Shown here: one piece after another, positions 1 through 29,234 of the stretch
Position numbering within the stretch: the stretch's first letter is position 1
Layout: each line of letters starts with the position of its first letter
Assembly (NCBI GenBank): GCA_965203315.1
Contig: CBDBCE010000002.1
Span: 1-29,234 of the forward strand
Length of the DNA stretch: 29,234 bases
Direction: 5' to 3'
Source of the DNA: Nitrosopumilus sp.
GTDB taxonomy: Archaea; Thermoproteota; Nitrososphaeria; Nitrososphaerales; Nitrosopumilaceae
Made by a program: the position numbers and the translations under genes
The notes under the pieces: generated by a model
Databases searched by the model: none
Seen by the model: only the letters and a program-made list of their open reading frames with translations
What the model was told of the DNA's origin: nothing

Positions 1-2509
1 GTGAGTTGATATTTGACGTACTTTTGATTTTCAATGCGGCTTTTTCTGCTCTGGCCCTCTGATGTTCTTGTTTCTCTCTGTCCTTTTTTTCTTGATTTCT
101 CTTTTTGTCTTGAAGTTTCTGAAGATTTTCTCGGCTTGTTAGAACTGATCCAGCAGATGGTGTCTTTTTTGAATTCACTTTGTTCGTTGAAGGTCTTTTC
201 AAAAACTTACTAATTGATGTACTATGTCGCTGAGGAACTGGTGGATGATTATAGGTGGAATTGGGAGAAATCAAGTCCAGCTCAGGTTTTAAAGAGGGTC
301 GTGGGCTGACAAATGAATCAGTGACACTGTCTTGATTGTTGCTAAGTGTGATGCCACTACACTTGGTTGTAGAAAGAGCCTGCTTGGATGGACAGGCTGG
401 GCTGTAGTGTGGAGTGTAATTTATCCACCAATCATCTGTGCCTGTGGTGTTTATAGGGGTTGGACTGAGATGTACCATGGTGCTGTTTGATCCTGTTGGA
501 AAAGTATATATAGTGTAATATGCATTATACGTATTATAATAACATCATACACACATGTACACGCTTTACAGCAGCTGTGGACTATAATAATATTATGCAC
601 CTTCATCATATACTGCATTGACTGTGTCTTACCATTATCCTTCTTTCTTGATTTCACCTTAGATGGCACTTTTCTTCTACTTCTGTCTACCTTCAGTGTT
701 TCAGCTAGGAGCATATACAAATTAACCCTATGTACATGGCCATGTTAGATTTTGAAGACTTAAGAACTAATGCTTACCTTGGGCTGCTTCTTCTTGGTTC
801 ATACTCAATTTCGATTGGTGATAATTTTCTGAATCAATGGATTTTCCTTTCTTTGACTCCAGCTTAGCTTGTTGCTTCTCCATTCTAGCCTTTTGCCTTT
901 TCATTTTTTCCCTTTCCTTTGCAACCTTCATCTCTTCCTTCTTTTGAAGCATTTTCAAATTCTCATGGCTTGTAAGTACCTTTCCCGCACACTTTGAACT
1001 TTTCATCAATAATTGTTGATCATTGCTGGCAAGATTTGGTGTAGGCCCCAAAATCTCGCTGATTGTGGTCCTGTAGCGATAACTAACAGTAGACGTAGGA
1101 TTTAGGGCCTGGCTTTCTTCCTCTGCATGGTGAAAGCTGTGAGCATCTTCATTTTCCACAGCAGGCCAAACTTCTTCATGCTGTATCTTGGTTGTTGCTT
1201 TGGGAGGATCCCCTTGGTCTCTGCAAGCTGGTGGTGAAGAAAACAAAGGAATGTAGGACAATCCTGTTCTCTCTGCTAGAGATGACGAATCATGCAAACG
1301 TGAATCTTTCAGGAGGATGCTAGGATCTAGAGGGTAGATGCCCGTGACCTTGAATCCGGCAATGATGTTTTCCATTTTCATGGCCTTGTACCATGCCTGC
1401 GAAAATACGCTGGAGAATTCAAGGCGGTTCACTACTTTCCCTGGATTCCTTGTAAGAAAGTGATGGCATTCTTCCTTCCAAGCTGTTTTCAGTGGTGCAA
1501 AGCAGGCCCTGTCTAAAGGTTGAGTCAGGTGCGTTGTATTTGGTGGTAAAGCAAATAAGATGACCTTATTCTTTGCAGCTAGACGTATGGTCTCAGGACA
1601 ATAGTGAGACGCATGACCATCCAGTAGTAGGATAATTGGGCGCTTTGGTGGAATGTACTGGAGGAAATGATTGGAAAACCAGGATTGAAAAAGCTCCTGA
1701 TTCATCCAACCATTTGCAGACAATCCATAGAGTGTACCCGGAACTTCTCCTTGTGTACATGCTGGATTTAGGGACTTACGATCCATCAAAACAAATGGTG
1801 GTAGAGCTATACCTGTAGCGCATGTGCAAGCTAGAACTGATATTTGGGATTTATCACCACCAGTTATGTGGGAAGCATGTTTTGTACCTTTGCCCATAAT
1901 CACCTTTTGAATTGGTGGATTCAGGGGTAACCCTGTTTCGTCACAGTTGTAGAATTGATCTGGTCCCTCAATACCATTCTCTTTCAAACAGGTCTCCAGC
2001 ATCGTGAAATATCTTCTTATGGTATCTGGGTCTGATGCCATTGCTCTTGTACGCGAGAGTTGAACAGCATTCCTCAGTGTAAGCTGTGGGTAACGCTTCT
2101 GAAATCTATCCATCCATCCATTGCTGACAATTATTGTACTTCCCTTGCTGTCGAGGATGTTCTGCACAATTGCTAGAACATCTTTCCTTGTTTTAGGGAA
2201 CCCAAGTGAAGCACATTTTAGAATAAAGGCAACCAATTCATGTTCCTCCTCCACGGTTAGATAGGCACCCCCAGATCTCCCAGATCCTACCTTCAATTTG
2301 CCAGCAGTGTAATCGGAAAGGGTAGAGCGAGGCACATTATACATGATGGCTGTTGCCCGGATGGATTCACCTTTTCCCACAGCTTCAATTGCTTTCTTCA
2401 TGCTGTCTTCATTCCACTGTTTATATGTTTCTCTAATATTGCTGACACACCTTAGTGGTTCCCTTCTTGAAGACACTATTCGTTGCTTCAGTGGTGCATG
2501 ATGGTACAT
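1..2509 (-). CDS. pogo-family transposase: HTH_psq + CENP-B-type HTH + DDE_1 (DD35D), with spliced C-terminal extension running off the window
   Basis: ORF 767-2509: QWNEDSMKKAIEAV...IRATAIMYNVPRSTLSDY (psq HTH); LTVEEEHELVAFI...SNGWMDRFQKRYP (CENP-B HTH); YNCDETG, LLLDGHASH and QPLDRACF, with 35 residues between the 2nd and 3rd D. GT-AG phase-1 introns join exons 2509-779, 704-633 and 492-1 in an open frame. Confidence 0.93.
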
Positions 2510-3358
2510 CTGTATTATAAGTAAAAATTATAATTGGGTGATTTACATTTATCTTCTCCTTTTATTAGGTTCAAAGTGCGGAAAAGGTTCAAGAAAAGAG
2601 CAATATGGCAATAATATTATCTATTAATTAGAGTCTGTCTGATTGGTTTTATTTTGATTTAAGAATCACCTACCTTTTATCCAATGGATGTACCTTGAAA
2701 ATCTTGCCTTGAAGAATAAATCGACGTCCTGTGCCCTTAGAATACGTAGTCAATAAGACGATTGCTTTGCGATTTTCGAATCAAGCAATTATGCCGCTTC
2801 ACTTCACGTGACACGTATTAGCTAGCACGTGCGTGCACTGAAGAAACCGCTCATGCGGGGAGAAATAAACTAAGTCATGGTTGATTCTGTGTGGCAGTTG
2901 ACTGATCACACGAACGTACGTCCAAACGGCCGAGTCGCTGCAGTTTGTCCGAATTTTGATAACTTAGTGCGTGTCCGAATTTTGATGTTCTTCAAGAGAC
3001 AGGAAACACGCGATGTGTTCTCAGCGCATGAAGAGCGCTTTTGCACGAATCTTTGGTATGTCAGAACTGAAGTATGTACCTAATATCTAAACGTATCCTA
3101 GCTAGTTTCCTTGGCAAACCAAAAAATTGCGAACAAATGTCCGAATTTTGATGAAAGTGACCGAATTATTGAGAATTCGGACACCGTCTAAAATCGGTGA
3201 TAGCTCTGTGGTACTTTGACGGACGCAGGTCGTGTCACGTCAGCAAACAAAGCTTTTGAAGAGCTATCATTTGGTATCAACTTTATTGATGTGCACCAGG
3301 CGGTTGTCGAGAAATGCGTGTCCGAATTCTGATGTGTCCGAATTATGATGTTTTACTC
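1..3358 (-). mobile_element. pogo/Fot1-like (Tc1/mariner superfamily) DNA transposon; only its 5' end is in the window
   Basis: Contains a DDE_1 transposase. Subterminal repeats GTCCGAATT(T/C/A)TGAT at ~2947, 2973, 3139, 3320 and 3335, plus an inverted copy at ~3174. Ends ...GATGTTTTACTC|TA at 3358/3359-3360, where the TA is the TA of the minisatellite unit (cttTAcaaag). The other end lies left of the window, so the TIR pair cannot be confirmed. Confidence 0.75.
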
Positions 3359-3360
3359 TA

Positions 3361-4332
3361 CAAAGTTGCATGCGCTTACAAAGTCGCATAGGCTTATAAA
3401 GTTGCCTGCGCTTACAAAGTTGCCTACGCTTACAAAGTTGCCTACGTTTACAAAGTTGCATACGCTTACAAAGTTGCATACGCTTACAAAGTTGCATAGG
3501 CTTGCAAAGTTGCCTGCGCTTACAAAGTTGCCTAGGCTTACAAAGTTACATATGCTTACAAAGTTGCCTAGGCTTACAAAGTTGCATGCGCTTACAAAGT
3601 TGCATAGGCTTACCAAGTTACCTACGCTTACAAAGTTGCCTGCGCTTACAAAGTCGCATACGCTTTCAAAGTTACCTACGCTTACAAAGTTGCCTACGCT
3701 TACAAAGTTGCATACGCTTACAAAGTTGCATAGGTTTACCAAGTTACCTACGCTTACAAAGTTGCCTGCGCTTACAAAGTCGCATACGCTTTCAAAGTTA
3801 CCTACGCTTACAAAGTTGCATACGCTTACAAAGTTGCATAGGCTTACCAAGTTACCTACGCTTACAAAGTTGCCTACGCTTACAAAGTTGCCTACGTTTA
3901 CAAAGTTGCATACGCTTTAAGTTGCATACGCTTACAAAGTTGCATAGGCTTGCAAAGTTGCCTGCGCTTACAAAGTCGCATACGCTTACAAAGTTACCTA
4001 CGCTTACAAAGTTGCATGTGCTTACAAAGTTGCATACGCTTACAAAGTTGCCTACGCTTAAAAAGTTACCTACGCTTACAAAGTTGCATACGCTTACAAA
4101 GTTGCATGCGCTTACAAAGTTACCTACGCTTACAAAGTTGCATACGCTTACAAAGTTGCATAAGCTTACGAAGTTACCTACGCTTACAAAGTTGCCTACG
4201 CTTACAAAGTTGCCTGCGCTTACAAAGTTACCTGCACTTTCAAAGTTACCTACGCTTACAAAGTTGCCTAGGCTAACAAAGTTGCATAGGCTTATAAAGT
4301 TGCCTGCGCTTACAAAGTTGCCTACGCTTACA
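3361..4332 (+). repeat. 18-bp minisatellite, ~54 units, consensus GCTTACAAAGTTGCATAC
   Basis: Directly visible. Variation is mostly confined to a few positions of the unit. It accounts for all the LTKLHT/LQSCIR/VSVCNF ORFs. Confidence 0.98.
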
Positions 4333-10868: not shown

Positions 10869-11125
<257 letters not shown>

Positions 11126-13411
11126 GACTACATAACATCACTAAAATAGTGCACAATACTTTTTACAGACAATAGTCCAAGGAAAACACTTGTGTGATTC
11201 TGGTATGGCTGCAATATTACATACTACACGTCGCCGCATCAAACGCATAAGAGACCTATACAAAGCTGGAGTGACTACCATTACTACAATAAAGCCAACT
11301 GGTAGAAAGACATCAGAGAGGTACAGATGTATGTATGCATTCGAATAGGGATTTTGGACTGCGAGTATGTATGCATGCATTCATTCTTATGAACATGTAC
11401 TTACATATCCATCCATAGAGTTGAAATGGCAATAGCTTGGATGAGAAAGTGGTTTGAGCTCTATGGAGACAAAATGCCCGATAACAAAATGATACATCTT
11501 CCTCATTTCTTGTCTCGGGAGGCTGTGCATAAAGAGCTTGTGGAAGACTACAGAAGCAAGGGACTGGAATCACATGACATCATTTCGCTGTCTAGATTTT
11601 ACATGGTGTGGACTAAAAATTTTCCCCATGTTACCATTCCTCGTGTAAGTATGCATCCACAGATATATATTCCATACCATGATGCAACTAGGGAGCATAT
11701 TTAATGGATAGTGCATACGTAACATGAATATAATTAGGCACATGAATGGATATGGCAGCCTAACACAATAGCAGTCTGGCACACCCATGAGCATAGCTCT
11801 TAAACATTCACATGCACTTCGGTATGCTTTTCAGGGTCAGTAGTCACTCTTTTAATTGTTAAAAATGCTAACCAAACAATACTAACATACTGTACAGCAG
11901 TTAAAGTTTGCACTTATTTTTAGCCTATCTGGCCTACTAATGTAGCTGGTCCTGATGAATATCATACATGTACATTGCTTACTAGGCTGAACAAATATAC
12001 TTGATGTACTTGCTGCATGTCCTACTATCTACCAGACTAACAGGTTTGCCAAGTGTGACACGTGTGTGCTGTACAAAAATGAAAAACAAAAACTGAGTGG
12101 AAACAAAGAAAGACTTGCACGTTTGGATCAAACTTACAAGAACCATTTGGAAGCAATTAGGTATATGTCTTCATACATGTACATGTACCTGGGCTACTAC
12201 ATGTATTGAGGCTGTAGAAAAGTACGTAGTTGCCGAAATTTAGAGAAAACATGCACAGGAAGCTGGTACATCAAAAGTGACCCACCTCCAAAGAAAGCAA
12301 ATCTACAAATAAAACCTTGCACATTTACATCATAGACACAGTAAATTACATGGAATTAAACATTACCGTACCAGAGATGCTATACTGTTTTATGTTTATG
12401 TATGTGCATGCACAAGTATTATTGTCCCTCAATTCCAAATGGGGGCAAGATTATGTTGGAAGAGGGAGGGGCAAGCTCCTTCCCCCCAAATGAGGCACTG
12501 CATATTTTAGATTTTCATTGATACACAACACACTAATGGCACATGGTGTGTATATCCTTTTACTCAACTATTTTTTTTCACTGGAAGGATTGAAAGAACA
12601 GTGTACCACAAACACATTCAAAAGTCAAGATCCAATTCTGAGAAGTACGTAACTATAGCAATTGATGGAATGGATCAGCAGAAGACTTCTGTGCCGTTTC
12701 TTCCACAAGAGAGCAAGTCTGCACAAGTAAGATGTGGAAATGTGAAGTAACAAACTCATCTAGGCATTGATTATCCTTTTTGATATTTCAGGGGTTATGG
12801 AGATTGAGGACACATATAACCGGTGTTATTGTCCACACTGGAGATTGTTATGGAAAAAAGGTGTATGCATTTGTGGACACGCTGCAGTGGCCCCATGATT
12901 CGAACTTAACCATTAATGTGTTGGAGGAGGTAATTGCCAAGCTTCATACCAAGAGCGGAATTCTCCCGGAAGTTCTCTACATGCAAATGGACAACTGTTA
13001 TAGAAAAAAACAAGAACAGGTACATCTTGGCGTACTGCGCCTTACTGGTAGAATTGAAAATCTTCAGAAAAGTAAGGACGCATTGTGTTTTCCGCATGCC
13101 TTATTTTTAAGTTATTTACATATGTTCCCAACATATGCAGATCAGAATTAACTTCTTGCAAGTAGGGCACACCCATGCCGATTGCGACCAGCTGTTCAGC
13201 AAAATCTCTCAACATATTCACAAACATGGTGTTGAAAGTTTGCAAGGTAGGTAGAAACTTTTTGTCCTTGAATCTCCAATACAGTGTTACATCTTGACAA
13301 CATACATACCTCTTAACAATCGAATCAGAAATATTAATATTTAAGAGCTAAACAATACAATAATATTAAATGACCTCTGCTATGAAGTACCTAATGCTCA
13401 TTGTAGCCATA

Positions 13412-15505: not shown

Positions 15506-15836
<331 letters not shown>

Positions 15837-17642
15837 TTGACACTAACAAGGTAATATTGTAGTAGCTATGGTGGCCGCGAAGTTGGAATTCGGAAATTCT
15901 TCGGTATACCTCGGCCAGCTCAACTCCAGCACCTCCTTCCATTGCGTTCGGCGTTTGTCAGCGTTTCTGTTCATACCAAAGCTAGGGGTAACAATGAAAA
16001 AATCGAAGGTGGCCAATTTCGTTCAAACTTGGATCGAAGATGTCATTTAACTAGCTCTACCTAACGGTACATTTTGGTTTCAATTCCGTTACATTTACGT
16101 CGAGTTATGACTCAAAAACTGCCATTTTCGCCGTTAATTTTGGGTTATTGGCCTAGCACAGATTGGCGACGAAAGAGACTCCTCTCGAAACTTGTCCACT
16201 ATGAGAATACTTTGATATCTACTAAATCGTGATAGAAATAGCCCGAAAGAAAACGATCTGTTGGAGTAACCGTTCACTTTCTGCACCTTTGTAGCCAACA
16301 GTCCATATATCAAACGTCGCTGCAACCGATCGCGAGCGCCGATGAAAATGCTCCTAACACCGGGAGATGTCTCACATATCAAGCTAGCCATGAGCCTTAT
16401 ACGAGAAGCTGGAAGCATTTTAAACCATTTGAACAGCAGGCATATATTTATGAGATAATACGCAAAATCGGATTCGACCTATAACAAAGAGAGCTATCAT
16501 TTTAAATCACTCTGTAGGGTAGTAGAGACACGTGCATTATGATATTGCAGATCAAGAAATACTTAAACAAGAAGGAATCACAATCGTATCGCTCATTGAC
16601 AACCGAAGTTCAATTCTAAAATACTATTAGGTATTAATGATCATAAAAATTGAACCCTGCCTACGTACGTAGATCTGTTCTCCAATTTCGCACTATCCAA
16701 ATACTTGCACCATAGACTCTATACCCTCTGGACTGGAAACAATTTATATTACATATAAATTCAATAGATTATCACACGTTCTTTTGTATAAATTATTTCG
16801 ACCGCAAAAGCGGAAGTGTACCCATGCTCGTGCCTTTCCGCGCAGAGTAGAAAATAGGAAAATCGCAAGAAACTTTCGATAGCTAGTCGGCGAAGGAGAT
16901 TTAAGCCTCTGAATAGGTCCCTTACAAGGCAATTGAACCTTTATCACCTAAAAACCTGCAGGAGTAAGTAAGCATAAGATTTCGTTCGCCGTCAAGTTAG
17001 CTTGCCCTTGGTTGCGAATTTGTGTGCAAATTTTCGGGACGAACATAAGGTTTCGCCAGGACTAAACAGCTATCGAAGGATAGACTAAGCTTGGTTCTAT
17101 TCCACTGGGAAGGTAGTTATTGCTCAAACTGTACACTAGAAAAGTTATTGATCAAAGTGTGAAACCTCGCGTGTTAGTACGTACCCTGCACTGTTTACAA
17201 ATTTTTACGGCTCCTACCGGGTAGAGCAAGGCAAGTGACATTTCAAATGACGTGTTACGTGCCATTCTACCAAATAGGGGTGGTCACGAGCTTTCATAGT
17301 CCCTATAACAACTAAAAAGCACAGCTTTTATAACGGCTTGTCCATGTGATCCTCAACGGGCGAGCTCAAAAAAATTACGGGTAAGAAAGGTAGAGGGTGC
17401 AAAAATGCAATTGATTGTTTACATAGCAGCAGCCATACAAGGATGTAGTTACATCTACTGATAATGCACCAGCTGCCTTTGTTCAACAAAAGTAACAGAA
17501 GACAACAATGAAACTAGTTACAATCATCCTGATCAGGCCCCTGCTGCCTTTGTTCAGTACCAGTACTTGACAATGAACTTCCTGTAAGAATAAAAAGGAA
17601 CAGTTCAGTGAAGTTAGTTAGCTCTAACAAGTCTTAGTGAGC

Positions 17643-20600
17643 ATGTCCTCAACAAAAATGTACAAGAAGAGGGGGCCGAGAAGTAGCAAGCGGTTGGCAC
17701 CAGTCCCCAAAAAGAGAAAACAGGTGAGCTCCTACAATGTAGAAATTAGTTGTAGTACCTTACTATTAATTTATACTTGTGCAGGCACCACAGTGCACAA
17801 TATCTGATGTGTATGCTGTTCTCCAAGAATCACCTGGCTACAACAAAGTAAGTGCACAACACTGCGGATTCTATAGGTTACTTCAGCTGCATGTGCATTA
17901 GAAACTTCAGCAACAGCAATGAGTTCTGTTATTTTTCGTACATGGCACAGTGGACTGATGTGACTGTGGATGCTAGCACTGGAATCCAGTTGATACAACT
18001 TGAAATTAAGGATGACCTGCCTAGTACAGTTGACCCAATTTCTAAAACCATGACATTGACAGTCAACGTAGGTCGGGAATGGCATCTGTATGTGCTTGGG
18101 AAGTATGTGACACAGGGAACCTGCCCAGCACTGAATGCACTACAACCACAGTTGGATTGCGATTCTGCCAAGACTTTCTTGGAAGAAATTGGTGCCCTAA
18201 CGATATGTCCAGGAAATACCAAGCCTACATACATAGATCTTGTCAAAAGGAAACATGGCATGCTAGTAAACCCCTTGGGAGAAAAGACAGTGGAGATTGA
18301 TTCAAAGAGCCATATGCAGACTGTCAGACACACAAATTGCCATATGCTCATAAAAGCTAATGAAGCCCAATGTCTACAGTGTAGACTTAGTAAAAAGATG
18401 ATGCAGATGAGAGTTGCCAGAGCAAAAGGTCAGCCCATGCTAACATACTTGCTGCTTAGCTTATGTATTTACATATGTACTTACATTACTGTAGCGAGAA
18501 TTGCGAGACAGTTTGGGGAGACAACCAATTGGAAACACTTGACCACCCCACAGAAACGTCTGCAACATGAACGAAAGGTAAAGGCAGCCCGAAAATGGAA
18601 AAGAAAGGCTACTAACTTGGAGAAAAGGGTGACTGCGATTATGATGGAAAGGGAGGTTATCGTTGATAACGAACTCGATGCAAGTCTCAGTCCTGCCCTT
18701 CAAGATTACCACAATGCCATGCAGAAGTTGCCAACAACAGATATTAAGAGGATATTTTGGGAACAGTGAGTTCACAAAACAAAATGATGCATTTGTGTAA
18801 ATAGACCAAAAAGATATTTAGACCTAAACTTGTCTCTGCATAGACAAATGAAAGCTGTGTCCACAAAGGGACCACAGGGCATGCGGTGGAATCCCATTAT
18901 GCTGAGAATGTGCTTACAACTGAGGCATTACTCTCCCACTGGCTACGAAATGCTTCGCAAGGTAGTTAAACTTCCATCAACACGGACCTTGAGGGACTAC
19001 ACACACTGGTTCAAGAGTACCCCAGGTCTGCCTATAGCTATTATTATTTAAAATGATGATACAATTGTCATATTGATTCTAAATTATTATGCATGAAACA
19101 GGTATCCAGAAGGAAACCTTGCAGCAACTGAAGGAGGTATCTGGGATTGAAGATGGACCACACAGGAACCGCTTGATAGCATTGGTGATGGACGAGATGA
19201 AAATAAAAGAGGACGTTGTGTACAACCACAATTCCGGACAAATTGTTGGTTTCACGAATATAGGCGAGGCCAACAATGAGATCATGGGCATCACTCGTGC
19301 TATGGCCACCACATCCAGCAGCCCTAGGTCTGCTGTTACAACAATTGCCACACATGTAATGGCATTCATGGTTCAGGGTATTTGCAGTTCCCTGAAGTTT
19401 CCCCTCGCCCATTACCCAACCAAGGACCTAACTGGAGATCAACTCTATGGTATGGTGTGGGAAGTTGTAGAAGCCCTAGAAGTGGCAGGTTTCAAGGTGA
19501 GTAATTACAAATAATAACATCACCCAAAATACATAGAATCTACCGAGCCAGTACATATACGTACGTACGTACTCTATACAGGTTATGTGCATTACTGGAG
19601 ATGGTGCGTCAACAAATCGGCAATTTTTCCGCATACATGTCAGTGAGGAGGGGACCAAATTTGGTGTGACATACAGGACAAGAAACAAGTTTGCTCCTGA
19701 CCGCTTTATCTATTTCATTTCGGATGTGCCACATCTGATCAAAACAGTTCGCAACTGTTGGCACCAGTCAGGATGGGACAAACATCGCATTCTCCTGGTG
19801 AGCTGATACAATGTACAATGTTTCATGTCTCAGCGTTTGTGCATAAAAATATACGTATATATATATCACACAAAAGCATCCACCATTATGTTATATAAAA
19901 TCTCCACTATAGAACAACGGATTTTACATTATGTGGAGCCATCTTGTCAAAGTCTATGAAGAAACCAGAACTGCCTCAGGACTTTTCACAACAAAACTGA
20001 AACATGAACACATACACCTAACCTCCTTCTCAAAGATGAGGGTTAACCTAGCAGCACAGGTACGTATGGTAAATACATGTGAATTATCACACTATATACT
20101 ATGAAAAATTTCCTAGGCACTCAGCTCATCGGTTGCACATGCCATGAAGTCCATCGACAGCAGAAGTGGATCGACATATAACAACATGACTGCCACCATT
20201 GAATTCTGCCAAATGTTCGATCGCTTTTTTGACTGCCTCAACTCGAGATCATTAGATGAGGCCCAAAGAAGGAGGAAGCCAGACATTGATGCGTACAAAT
20301 CTGTACAGGATTCACGGTTTCAGGTACTAATGCATATGCATACATACATACAAGGACATTAATATGCATTACTATGACAGTTACATTACATTTTATCATC
20401 AAAATAGTGGTTGGAGGAAACATTTATCAAATATCTATTGGACTGGGAGGACAACGTTAAGGCACTACCAGGTTACACAAATGCACAAAAGGAGAGAATG
20501 CTTTTGAGCAGGGAGACAAGGGAAGGTCTCAAGATCACAAGTATGTAGATATAAAATACTATAGTTGAAGGTCGACTGTTTAATGATCCTGATAATTTTT

Positions 20601-20910
20601 GTATACAGCAATGTCATTTGTGGAGCTTGGGAAACTAATACTGCAGGAAGAAGGGGTTCAATACTTCTTTAGCTGTCGGCTCAACCAAGATGGCTTGGAA
20701 ACCTTCTTCGGCCACCAAAGATCGCGTGGACGGTACAATGACAACCCAACAGTTGCTCAATATCTTGACAACTGCAACAGCCTTAGGTTGATGGTTGCAT
20801 TATCATTGGAGGGGAAACGTATCAACACACAGCTACAGGACTCTGACAAGACAATGGCAACAGTGCCACTGAGACGAAGACGACAAAGGAGACACAGGAA
20901 CAGTTTGTAA
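17643..20910 (+). CDS. P-element/THAP9-family transposase core, 11 exons, ~824 aa, intact; no THAP domain and no C-terminal domain
   Basis: Exons 17643-17723, 17785-17847, 17951-18428, 18495-18765, 18844-19025, 19102-19496, 19582-19797, 19913-20059, 20117-20323, 20408-20540 and 20609-20910 total 2475 nt, all GT-AG and in phase. Motifs: MRWNP...SPTGYEMLR..LPSTRTL (HTH), LVMDEMKI (D1), ITGDGASTN (D2), DVPHLIKTVRN, KMRVNLAAQ and FDCLNS (GTP-binding insertion), RLNQDGLETFFGHQRSRG..NDNPT (E). Confidence 0.92.
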
Positions 20911-21920
20911 TACGTACATGAAGAACTACAATAATATGACTCACTTAATTTGAGTTGCTTCCGTATTCCTTTTGCTCCTTTTGTGTTCTTTGCCTTTTGG
21001 CGCTTGTACAGTTCAACAATCATACTAGTTATTGCATGGCCTCGCATTTTAATCCAAAGGTCTACCATCTCCTTTAGTAGAGCTTGACTATCCCTTTCAG
21101 TGGTTATGTCAAGAGAGATTGTGGCCCATAGAAACTGCAAATGTTCATTACTACAAACTGCAGCAGCAATGACTGTATTGTCTTTAGGCTGATCACCTTC
21201 TAGTATTGGCTGTAAGTGCATGTATGTGACGCTCTCGATGCACTTAAACAAGGTAAAAGCGCTGGGGTTCACAAGTGATAGTCCTCCTCTGTCAACGTCT
21301 TGAAACCATTCTTCCAAGAAATCTTCAAAGCGACTGTCGTCATCCTCATACTTCCCACCGCTCAGGAGGTTGATCAGCGTCTCTGTAACTTCGGCTGCTG
21401 AAGGTGTGTCGATCTTCACGTACTTACGCTGCAATCTTCTCACTACGAAACCGCTCGCATACATAATAGCCTTCTCTTCCTCTGGAGTGAAAATACGTTC
21501 GCTTATCTCTCCACTGTCGTGGGTGCTCCTGGTGATCCGAGACAACAGCATTTCCACCCATTGTCGAGACACAGCTTGGTACGTAAGCGGGTCGATCGGT
21601 GTCTCGATAGAAGCCCGGACTTTTTCCCACAAAGTCGGAAGCTCGGTCGTACTAGCAACGTGAAACTTAGCCCAAAATGTCTTGTACTTGGTGGGTGCGC
21701 AGTCCTGTACAACCTTTTCCAAGACCTCACGAATGTTCATCAAATGTCTCGATACCCTCTGGCGAGAAACAACGTTCTTCAAATGTCCCTTCAGAACAGA
21801 GATTTGCTGGAGAACCATTGCTTGCTGAGATGATACCACCAAATAGCAATCTTTCGCTTGGAGACGTTCCAAAACAGTCAAAAATTCAACGCAGATGCTC
21901 TCCATTCTCGAGGCTCGCAA
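20757..21920 (-). CDS. second P-element gene: stand-alone protein resembling the P transposase C-terminal domain
   Basis: 387-aa ORF inside the TIRs, with motifs EEKAIMYASGFVVRRL, WFQDVDRGGLSLVNPSAFTLFKCIE and VDLWIKMRGHA and a basic tail KRQKAKNTKGAKGIRKQLK. A GTGAGT donor at 20944 (minus) suggests the real 3' end may be spliced rather than read through to 20757. Confidence 0.8.
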   Translation of the reverse strand: MRASRMESICVEFLTVLERLQAKDCYLVVSSQQAMVLQQISVLKGHLKNVVSRQRVSRHLMNIREVLEKVVQDCAPTKYKTFWAKFHVASTTELPTLWEKVRASIETPIDPLTYQAVSRQWVEMLLSRITRSTHDSGEISERIFTPEEEKAIMYASGFVVRRLQRKYVKIDTPSAAEVTETLINLLSGGKYEDDDSRFEDFLEEWFQDVDRGGLSLVNPSAFTLFKCIESVTYMHLQPILEGDQPKDNTVIAAAVCSNEHLQFLWATISLDITTERDSQALLKEMVDLWIKMRGHAITSMIVELYKRQKAKNTKGAKGIRKQLKLSESYYCSSSCTYYKLFLCLLCRLRLSGTVAIVLSESCSCVLIRFPSNDNATINLRLLQLSRY

Positions 21921-22905
21921 CTTCAGGGTTTATCCTTTCACACTTGTTAAAGGTGGATATGAATATCGTTGGTGTCAAATTTTTGCGGGTAAGTGGGCGG
22001 TTACGTGCAAAGTAAACCGGAAGCGAGTCACGAGCATAGGAACAGGGCACGTATATCAGTTTCCAGTCCAGAGGGTATAGAGTCTATGCTTGCACGTGCA
22101 CCGTTTTATTGCGCAATCTGTTAAAATGTCGGTTGAGCGATACGATTGTGATTCCTTCTTGTTTAAGCATTTCTTGATCTGCAATATCATAATGCACGTG
22201 TCTCTACTACCCTACAGAGTGATTTAAAATGATAGCTCTCTTTGTTATAGGTCGAATCCGATTTTGCGTATTATCTCATAAATATATGCCTGCTGTTCAA
22301 ATGGTTTAAAATGCTTCCAGCTTCTCGTATAAGGCTCATGGCTAGCTTGATATGTGAGACATCTCCCGGTGTTAGGAGCATTTTCATCGGCGCTCGCGAT
22401 CGGTTGCAGCGACGTTTGATATATGGACTGTTGGCTACAAAGGTGCAGAAAGTGAACGGTTACTCCAACAGATCGTTTTCTTTCGGGCTATTTCTATCAC
22501 GATTTAGTAGATATCAAAGTATTCTCATAGTGGACAAGTTTCGAGAGGAGTCTCTTTCGTCGCCAATCTGTGCTAGGCCAATAACCCAAAATTAACGGCG
22601 AAAATGGCAGTTTTTGAGCCATAACTCGGCGTAAATGTAACGGAATTGAAACCAAAATGTACCGTTAGGTAGAGCTAGTTAAATGACATCTTCGATCCAA
22701 GTTTGAACGAAATTGGCCACCTTCGATTTTTTCATTGTTACCTCTACCAAAGCGTAATAATTCTTCAAATTGTCATCACTGCACAGAATACTTACGTAAA
22801 CAAATAATATCCGTCACGATCCTGTACCTAATGGACATCTTCCACTCGAGATAGGTCCTCTTCTTCGATCGTCTATGATCGAGTCTTTGTGATCAGTTGA
22901 ACAGC

Positions 22906-24122: not shown

Positions 24123-24597
24123 CTAGGCTTACAAAGTTGCATACGCTTACAAAGTTGCCTGCGCTTACAAAGTTGCATGCGCTTACAAAGTTGCATGCGC
24201 TTACAAAGTTACCAACGCTTACAAAGTTGCCTGCGCTTACAAAGTTGCATGCGCTTACAAAGTCGCATACGCTTTCAAAGTTACCAACGCTTACAAAGTT
24301 GCATACGCTTACAAAGTTGCCTAGGCTTACAAAGTTGCATACGCTTTCAAAGTTGCAAAGTTGCATACGCTTACAAAGTTGCCTGCGCTTACAAAGTTAC
24401 CTACGCTTACAAAGTTGCATACACTTACAATTTGAAAGTTGCATACGCTTACAAAGTTGCCTGCGCTTACAAAGTTGCATGCGCTTACAAAGTTGCATGC
24501 GCTTACAAAGTTACCTACGCTTACAAAGTTGCATACGCTTACAAAGTTGCCTAGGCTTACAAAGTTGCATAGGCTTACAAAGTTGCATGCGCTTACA
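24123..24597 (+). repeat. second array of the 18-bp minisatellite, ~26 units, same orientation as 3361-4332
   Basis: Same unit and the same variant classes. Confidence 0.98.
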
Positions 24598-25415: not shown

Positions 25416-26362
<947 letters not shown>

Positions 26363-27008
26363 AAGTTTGTGCACAAGTAAATTTAATATGGATTCAACTT
26401 AATTATAATTAGCTGTCTTAGTGTTTGAACTGTAACTGTTAAACTTGTTCTTAAATTTTTAGGTGCTGAATCAACACCGACACTAGTAGAACGCTTGCCA
26501 CCACCATTTGAAGAGACAGACAGAACAAGGGATGAACTTCAAGACCAATAAGAAGAACGAACGGCAGTTTATAAACATTATGTAACAACTTTACGGGACA
26601 ATTCAAATGTTTCGGCATGCTAAGTATAATTTTTATTTGATTTGAACCACGTACATACCTGTTTCTTCTGATATCGCCAATACACTCGTACGAAACAATG
26701 AAGTATCAATTCGAATGCGCTAGAAGAGCATCCATCCCACGATTCTGGTCGGTCTTTGTCATCTGTATTCACGGACAAGGAGACTACCGTGTATATCGAG
26801 CGAACGGTTTATTTCCGAGTCAATCGACGGCCATATTCACGGTACATACCGTGACATAATATGCAAATACGATAATACACGGACCCGTGAATACACCGTA
26901 CGGAAACCCGTGTAATTCTCGTCCTATACGTGTTTACGGGAACGGTTTCGACGTGTAAACGGGACCGTGCACAACGCACGTTTTCCCTGTGTGTCTTGTA
27001 TGTATATG

Positions 27009-27825
<817 letters not shown>

Positions 27826-28113: not shown

Positions 28114-29234
<1,121 letters not shown>

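Follow-up and report, generated by a model that had tools for sequence, protein, structure and literature searches.

A P-superfamily transposon whose transposase is probably divided between two convergent genes

Introduction

Transposons of the P superfamily duplicate 7-8 bp of target on insertion, and their biochemistry is set apart by a GTP cofactor and by a staggered cleavage of 17 nt. In the Drosophila P transposase (DmTNP, 87 kDa; PDB 6P5A and 6PE2) and in vertebrate THAP9, an all-alpha C-terminal domain (CTD) follows the catalytic core in the same polypeptide. Here we describe a complete P-superfamily transposon at positions 16711-22088 of the 29,234-nt contig CBDBCE010000002.1, deposited under Nitrosopumilus sp. 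(assembly GCA_965203315.1); the whole of this stretch is called the window below. Like those elements it has terminal inverted repeats (TIRs) of about 30 bp and a short target-site duplication (TSD), and the same CTD fold is predicted for one of its products; as with Drosophila P, internally deleted non-autonomous derivatives occur. The TSD is 7 bp here, as against the 8 bp given for Drosophila P in the excerpted text of PMC7776569. Unlike Drosophila P and THAP9, this element has its putative CTD in a separate, convergent gene, ORF2 (for open reading frame 2), behind an extra bundle of 133 aa; no THAP domain was detected, and the transposase gene has 11 exons.

Other transposons with two genes differ from this arrangement in several ways. 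PIF/Harbinger elements, which are eukaryotic cut-and-paste transposons, need or carry two genes within their TIRs, one for a transposase and one for a Myb-like DNA-binding protein. In these elements the second protein binds DNA as a factor in its own right and is no detached transposase domain, and both the superfamily and the catalytic domain are different. In maize MuDR, mudrA and mudrB converge from both ends, but this is an element of the Mutator superfamily, and mudrB encodes no piece of the MURA transposase and has another role. Tn7 does divide an element-encoded transposase function over two polypeptides, TnsA and TnsB, but these are prokaryotic, are two different nucleases, and are unrelated in sequence and fold. 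Full-text literature searches turned up no account of a P element that is split or has two genes; Repbase, Dfam and supplementary files lie outside those searches and may hold one. We consider it likely that the element described here is intact and recently mobile, and that it belongs to a widespread P clade in which the transposase is made in two pieces, from two convergent genes within the TIRs.

Results

The catalytic gene ends where the C-terminal domain would begin

Gene 1 lies on the plus strand and has 11 exons, separated by introns that all run from GT to AG and giving an open frame of 824 codons (Table 1), so the intact 11-exon transposase proposed in a first-pass annotation of this DNA was borne out. 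When the exon ORFs were searched, the matches to PF21787, PF21788 and PF21789 all exceeded the Pfam cut-off. An interrupted RNase H-like DDE domain, a helix-turn-helix (HTH) upstream of it, and TIRs with a 7-bp TSD are features of the P superfamily that were found here; two others, the N-terminal THAP zinc finger (in the Pfam search) and a CTD on the catalytic polypeptide, were not found in gene 1. The element is in the P superfamily, but in a distinct two-gene clade.

The catalytic glutamate (NQDGLE) is residue 755, and the part of exon 11 around it matches residues 509-553 of 6p5a_A (phmmer, 1.1e-5). The frame ends 69 residues later; the early stop had been noticed in the first-pass annotation, although its length of about 65 aa was slightly short. 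In DmTNP the RNase H domain extends to residue 566, which is 35 past E531, and the CTD comprises residues 566-751 (borders as stated in the excerpted text of PMC10824691). Set against these borders, gene 1 stops about where the CTD linker starts. No further plus-strand exon that could supply a CTD was found, in line with the first-pass annotation: PF12596 (Tnp_P_element_C) had no match in six frames of the contig, and the four plus-strand ORFs downstream of exon 11 had no Pfam match. In related loci, tblastn segments break at residues 491, 550-565, 612, 680 and 724-727, and the exon borders here fall at 490, 562, 611, 680 and 724, so that those introns are conserved in position.

A six-frame search of the entire contig for the THAP domain (PF05485) gave no match at E ≤ 1, and exon 3 had no Pfam match. 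Residues 49-207 of the transposase nevertheless form a conserved domain, with an invariant tryptophan and three invariant cysteines (C..., CxxC) in 7 sequences. The AlphaFold2 (AF2) model of this region (pLDDT 84.4) is mixed beta/alpha; its best PDB match reached Z 5.3 and, with a best Z as low as that, no THAP chain stood among the structural matches listed. A likeness of the N-terminal model (residues 1-83) to an RWD-like kinetochore domain was also at Z 5.3 only and was not accepted. The domain may be an undescribed DNA-binding module in the place of THAP.

ORF2 has the predicted fold of the missing domain

Inside the same TIRs, the minus strand holds an uninterrupted frame of 390 codons from stop to stop (20757-21929), which gives 382 aa from the ATG at 21905. 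The first-pass annotation had reported this frame with a length of 387 aa; the frame stands, but the length does not, and conservation extends only to about residue 323. Residues 324-382 are missing in the family (top-residue frequency 0.02) and were modelled with pLDDT <50. The conserved part consists of an N-terminal helical bundle (1-133), a CTD-like domain (137-303) and a basic tail (304-323), so that the extra sequence ahead of the CTD part, put earlier at about 145 aa, is real but comes to about 136 aa. The conserved coding ends of gene 1 (20910) and ORF2 (20937) are 27 nt apart. Three motifs on which the likeness to the P CTD had been proposed are present in the proposed order: MYASGFVVRRL at 148-158, DRGGLSLVNPS at 205-215 and WIKMRGH at 284-290.

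The AF2 model of ORF2, built from an alignment of 104 sequences, is all-alpha (pLDDT 82.3, pTM 0.63). It was compared by VIA-align with 48,161 PDB representatives, with no prefilter. The top match was 6p5a_B, the CTD of the Drosophila P strand-transfer complex deposited as a chain of its own (DmTNP 617-734), all of which (118/118 residues) superposed onto model residues 137-303 with Z 11.1 and a root mean square deviation of 2.6 Å. This was the sole chain with Z ≥ 8, the second-ranked chain having Z 6.9 and the 50th Z 4.5. A repeat comparison over the Foldseek top 1000 chains again had 6p5a_B as leading match, and in Foldseek itself its probability (0.66) and TMt (0.54) were the highest listed, every other listed row having a probability of 0.33 or less. 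The model of the transposase N-terminal domain from the same element, used as a control (pLDDT 84.4), reached Z 5.3 only. Three points speak against a chance packing of helices: the target had been named beforehand, was fully covered, and scored 4.2 Z over the next row. As far as predicted models can speak, the structural evidence that ORF2 is the CTD is strong.

The evidence from sequence is weak but consistent. Of 104 ORF2 relatives, 12 matched PF12596 at E<0.1 (best 3.4e-4), as compared with 3 for the runner-up Pfam family, and PF12596 was the sole Pfam family that recurred among them. Ten members were picked because they have a YVAGY- or YIAGY-type motif, and in five of them the motif E.NALRYxAGYV.RK aligned to PF12596 positions 61-96 of 107. 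When four genomes (48.6 Mb) were searched in six frames, all four PF12596 matches at E ≤ 0.1 fell within ORF2-family genes. The first-pass claim that the minus-strand frame resembles the P CTD was thus upheld by the structural match to 6p5a_B and by the PF12596 matches in its relatives, which are sub-threshold. The DmTNP CTD is described, in the excerpted text of PMC7776569, as all-alpha, with a disordered flexible linker and a basic, unmodelled C-terminus pointing at the target DNA; the basic tail of ORF2 (304-323) would fit the latter, and the disordered linker would be a natural place for a split.

From 1.84 billion representatives, a profile made with five close sequences retrieved 3418 ORF2-family protein clusters at E ≤ 1e-3, of which 1430 also passed E ≤ 1e-10 and 205 passed E ≤ 1e-30. 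Nearly all of the 150 matches listed are proteins of 190-370 aa aligned end to end, which indicates that the relatives of ORF2 are stand-alone proteins; a typical member has about 320 aa. A search for fused or longer forms found none, which is weak evidence that they are absent, and none of ten members looked up carries a name. In 99 of 99 family members the region corresponding to residues 300-323 has a net positive charge, on average +0.30 per residue. The N-terminal bundle (1-133), compared within the whole-protein model, gave no clear fold, its best matches (Z 6.2-6.5) being to unrelated chains, and look-alikes in the ESM Atlas, for the whole of ORF2 as well as for the CTD part, were generic helical families only (0.79-0.85). 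The best PDB sequence rows for ORF2 and its profiles, PARP1 and RGS10, were at chance level and were discarded.

The two genes are linked in other loci

Metagenome contigs scanned with ORF2 as the starting point yielded 31 loci, the contigs having at least 7 accession prefixes between them; 23 of the loci had at least 500 bp downstream of ORF2 and were informative. In 19 of the 23 a P core converged on ORF2 from the opposite strand, and in none was there a core on the same strand. The exon with the catalytic glutamate was located in 15 loci; in these the core stop comes 14-89 aa after the glutamate (mostly 65-77) and is 68-481 nt away from the end of ORF2. The core is without a CTD in the window and in 15 related loci. 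Altogether the convergent two-gene layout was found in more than 20 independent contigs, in which ORF2 is only 25-56% identical, and internal stops were absent from ORF2 in 17 of 23 loci. Starting from the core instead (last exon, in prokaryote-labelled genome contigs), three of four loci had a convergent ORF2, the fourth having a retroelement integrase downstream in its place; across the four genomes holding such contigs, a convergent ORF2 lay within 5 kb of 9 of 17 RNaseH_N loci. These results agree with the expectation of the first-pass annotation that homologues of ORF2 would be linked to P cores. Pairwise identities of core and ORF2 were correlated over 13 elements (Mantel r = 0.52; 0/5000 permutations as high), as would be expected if the two genes had travelled together.

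One of these loci (L005) holds an entire element: its TIRs, of the CATAGA..TGGAAAC type, are perfect over 32 bp, and its TSD is 7 bp long. Another (L015) resembles it but is older, with the same CATAGA..GGAAAC ends. A TIR motif was found upstream of ORF2 in 8 loci.

Some loci were incomplete or rearranged. In L019 and L027 the only core sequence, residues 172-336, comes 134 nt past ORF2; these two resemble copies in which an internal deletion removed the catalytic part and spared ORF2. L035 (G402:C9:334684-338988), in which two oppositely oriented ORF2-family copies surround a core fragment (residues 611-812 only), is a rearranged or nested pair of elements.

The element is complete and recently mobile

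The perfect TIRs reported in the first-pass annotation were confirmed (30 nt, 100% complementary) and are flanked by a 7-bp direct repeat (Table 1). A subterminal inverted repeat, the copies of which lie at unequal distances from the two element ends, is on sequence grounds a candidate transposase-binding site.

Contigs of four public runs (X1, X4, X5 and X6) were aligned to the region, and they match the window sequence through the junction region. A contig starts precisely at 16711 in all four runs, and in X6 a contig ends precisely at 22088. A joint corresponding to an empty site (16703->22089, with 7 letters shared) was present in X4 and X5. Three runs contained an internally deleted derivative of about 831 bp, made up of 668 bp of the left end and 163 bp of the right end (Table 1). 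In X1 the element ends have a depth of 794.6, close to what the full-length interior (420.2) and the deletion joint (373.1) add up to, so that about half of the X1 copies are the 831-bp non-autonomous derivative. As the flanks are repeats, the empty site may be paralogous instead of allelic; in either case the insertion is real and recently mobile.

The 2.47-Mb assembly that contains the window has a single copy of the element. Copies with a 4-nt deletion directly past the transposase stop (20911), which shifts the frame of the ORF2 tail, were present in all four runs. X6 also had a copy whose transposase exon 10 lacks 26 nt (window 20430). Variants among copies, counted in the best-supported rows only, were 4 synonymous and 2 not in ORF2 and 7 synonymous and 6 not in the core, numbers too few to use.

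Coordinates and surroundings

Table 1. Features of the element in window coordinates (E-values after the Pfam accessions).
Feature	Position	Strand	Remarks
Left 7-bp TSD, CTTGCAC	16704-16710		direct repeat just outside TIR
Left TIR (CATAGACTC...TGGAAAC; CATAGA...TGGAAAC type)	16711-16740	+	30 nt, 100% complementary to 22059-22088
Subterminal inverted repeat, cores ATGCTCGTG / CACGAGCAT	16817-16835 and 22026-22044		19 nt, 84% complementary
Segment absent from internally deleted derivative	17379-21925		joint 17378->21926 in X1, X4, X5
Transposase exon 1	17643-17723	+	start codon; basic, resembling a nuclear localisation signal
Transposase exon 2	17785-17847	+	AG/GT borders
Transposase exon 3	17951-18428	+	N-terminal domain, conserved W and Cys residues; non-THAP by Pfam
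Transposase exon 4	18495-18765	+	coiled-coil region
Transposase exon 5	18844-19025	+	P-element HTH: PF12017 (Tnp_P_element HTH) 5e-5, 24.1 bits vs cut-off 23
Transposase exon 6	19102-19496	+	RNase H N-terminal part: PF21787 (TNP-like_RNaseH_N) 1.1e-23; 3.4e-22 in six-frame genome search
Transposase exon 7	19582-19797	+	ITGDGAS, putative second catalytic D region, D assigned by position
Transposase exon 8	19913-20059	+	GTP-binding insertion domain, part: PF21788 (TNP-like_GBD) 1.2e-5
Transposase exon 9	20117-20323	+	GTP-binding insertion domain, part: PF21788 (TNP-like_GBD) 2.7e-11
Transposase exon 10	20408-20540	+	exon border at residue 724 kept in other loci
Transposase exon 11	20609-20910	+	RNase H C-terminal part: PF21789 (TNP-like_RNaseH_C) 3.6e-10; E755; short basic tail; TAA 20908-20910
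ORF2 unconserved read-through tail, aa 324-382	20760-20936	-	antisense to exon 11
ORF2 conserved part, aa 1-323	20937-21905	-	conserved in relatives
Donor-like site GTGAGT	20939-20944	-	within conserved ORF2 end, after codon 320 and one base
Right TIR	22059-22088	-	30 nt, pairs perfectly with 16711-16740
Right 7-bp TSD, CTTGCAC	22089-22095		direct repeat just outside TIR

The contig (window 1-29234) is eukaryotic, with GT-AG spliced genes, several transposons and microsatellites, and is contained in sponge metagenome runs. It had been placed in a 2.47-Mb prokaryotic assembly of 7 contigs that was scored 99.98% complete, and is probably a host (sponge) contig mis-binned into a symbiont metagenome-assembled genome (MAG). 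Large contigs labelled 'MAG: ... bacterium' (L034-L036), and G068:C4, have P-type elements with introns too.

The P element is bracketed by an inverted repeat of 613 nt (15983-16595 / 22134-22746, 99% complementary). Without the insertion this would be a foldback-like repeat of about 1.39 kb, with the P element in its 160-bp centre, and contigs of all four runs break at its outer borders (15981-15983). Elsewhere, window 767-2527 on the minus strand encodes a pogo/Tigger-type transposase of 586 codons (DDE_1 6e-23, HTH_Tnp_Tc5 6e-7, HTH_psq 2e-5), and plus-strand ORF fragments at 12771-13151 and 28435-28854 match DUF7869 (7e-24) and, weakly and below the cut-off, DUF6729 (1.7e-4); these fragments are probably parts of other mobile elements. 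Tandem arrays occupy positions 3359-4332, 24127-24597, 25482-26363 and 27009-27818, with units of 18 nt (x54, and a related 18-nt unit x25), 128 nt (x6.9) and 9 nt (x90), and (TG)n and (AC)n tracts at 10870-11126 / 15586-15836 form an inverted pair 4.5 kb apart.

Discussion

A transposase split over two convergent genes, as the first-pass annotation had suggested, is supported by the CTD-less core, the predicted CTD fold of ORF2 and the conserved linkage of the two. Several results nevertheless weigh against this reading. The ORF2 of the window itself had no Pfam match at E ≤ 1, and all PF12596 scores in its family were under the gathering threshold (the best reaching 20.6-20.9, against 22.6 bits). 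A PDB sequence search with ORF2 and three family profiles returned no P transposase chain. In the structural comparison, the Foldseek E-value for 6p5a_B was 0.99, identity within the alignment was 14%, and helical models can reach Z of about 13 by a common arrangement, so that a Z of 11.1 alone is no proof. As for linkage, four of the 23 informative loci (L004, L017, L031 and L033) had no P core. In L004 (94-1059, plus strand) an intact ORF2 converges on a hAT transposase (1412-3634, minus strand; DUF4371 1e-25, Dimer_Tnp_hAT 3e-9), in L017 an intact ORF2 has nothing recognisable within 1 kb downstream, and in L031 and L033 ORF2 has decayed. Likewise, 8 of the 17 RNaseH_N loci had no ORF2 nearby, all 8 being short or stop-containing fragments. 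Since no fused relative was retrieved, fission and fusion are not distinguishable. At L004, a TAGGG... hAT-like end about 45 bp past ORF2 suggests that the hAT element there may be a nested insertion.

It seems to us unlikely that ORF2 is a CTD-derived regulator and no required subunit, acting by titration of the element ends or of the core, or on dosage through the antisense 3' ends. In favour of such a role, truncated P products repress in Drosophila (excerpted text of PMC7776569), the transcripts of the two genes should overlap, given coding ends only 27 nt apart (20910 and 20937), and ORF2 has an extra 133-aa domain without an assigned role. However, the core has no CTD of its own, either here or in the 15 related loci, and the CTD of DmTNP makes many contacts to transposon and target DNA, according to the same text. 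Nor would a pure inhibitor be expected to co-diverge with the core and to stay intact while ORF2 identity fell to 25-56%.

Considerably less probable is that ORF2 is an unrelated helical accessory protein, for DNA binding or import, comparable to the second protein of PIF/Harbinger, with a CTD likeness that arose by convergence. The lack of a significant PDB sequence match to a P transposase, the sub-threshold Pfam matches and the ease with which helical folds give middling Z values would be accounted for in this way. Against it, the chain predicted in advance came first of 48,161, over its full length and well ahead of the next, whereas a control model from the same element gave no comparable match; PF12596 provides an independent sequence signal that points to the same family, and the CTD is precisely what the core is missing. 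A local accident (an inverted 3' exon, a nested insertion, capture of a host gene or mis-assembly), which a repeat-rich contig mis-binned into a prokaryotic MAG might invite, or the joining of both parts into one polypeptide at the RNA level, to which the donor-like GTGAGT at the conserved end of ORF2 could point, is so improbable as to need little discussion, since the layout recurs in more than 20 independent contigs (within homologous TIRs in L005 and L015), which excludes an accident in practice, the contigs of four public runs reproduce the junction-region sequence, and ordinary cis-splicing is unable to join genes on opposite strands.

If the transposase is indeed divided, gene 1 would supply an N-terminal domain other than THAP, the HTH and the RNase H catalytic domain, into which the GTP-binding domain is inserted, and would end in a short basic tail; gene 2 would supply a stand-alone CTD homologue (137-303) with a conserved basic tail, behind the 133-aa helical bundle. 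The two proteins would assemble in trans into a transpososome, in which residues 137-303 of ORF2 would have the RNase H domain of one core subunit on one side and the GTP-binding domain of the second subunit on the other, the position held by the fused CTD in the strand-transfer complex of Drosophila. From this place the ORF2 CTD would contact transposon and target DNA and the basic tail may reach the target DNA, while the N-terminal bundle might act as a docking module that substitutes for the covalent link. The nearly abutting 3' ends would give overlapping antisense transcripts, which could tune the dosage of the two proteins. A broader proposal, that there is a large unannotated clade of animal P elements with an obligate two-subunit transposase, docking by the bundle and dosage control by antisense transcripts, in which the split state either is ancestral to the fused P and THAP9 proteins or arose by fission in the disordered linker, is one toward which we lean by a narrow margin.

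The P element is a textbook transposon; the structure of its transposase has been solved and the role of the CTD is the least explored. With a naturally separate CTD, the function of this domain could be tested directly by comparing the core with the core plus ORF2. The result also gives a likely function to 'hypothetical' proteins with a length of about 320 aa, in at least 3418 clusters, which lie outside any Pfam model, and it calls for caution in annotation, in that a P-type element can carry a second gene and lack a THAP domain. Tool builders could take an interest in a split system that is compact, has 30-bp ends and comes with a natural 831-bp non-autonomous partner. With this element, the P superfamily would join the short list of eukaryotic cut-and-paste superfamilies that have two-gene members.

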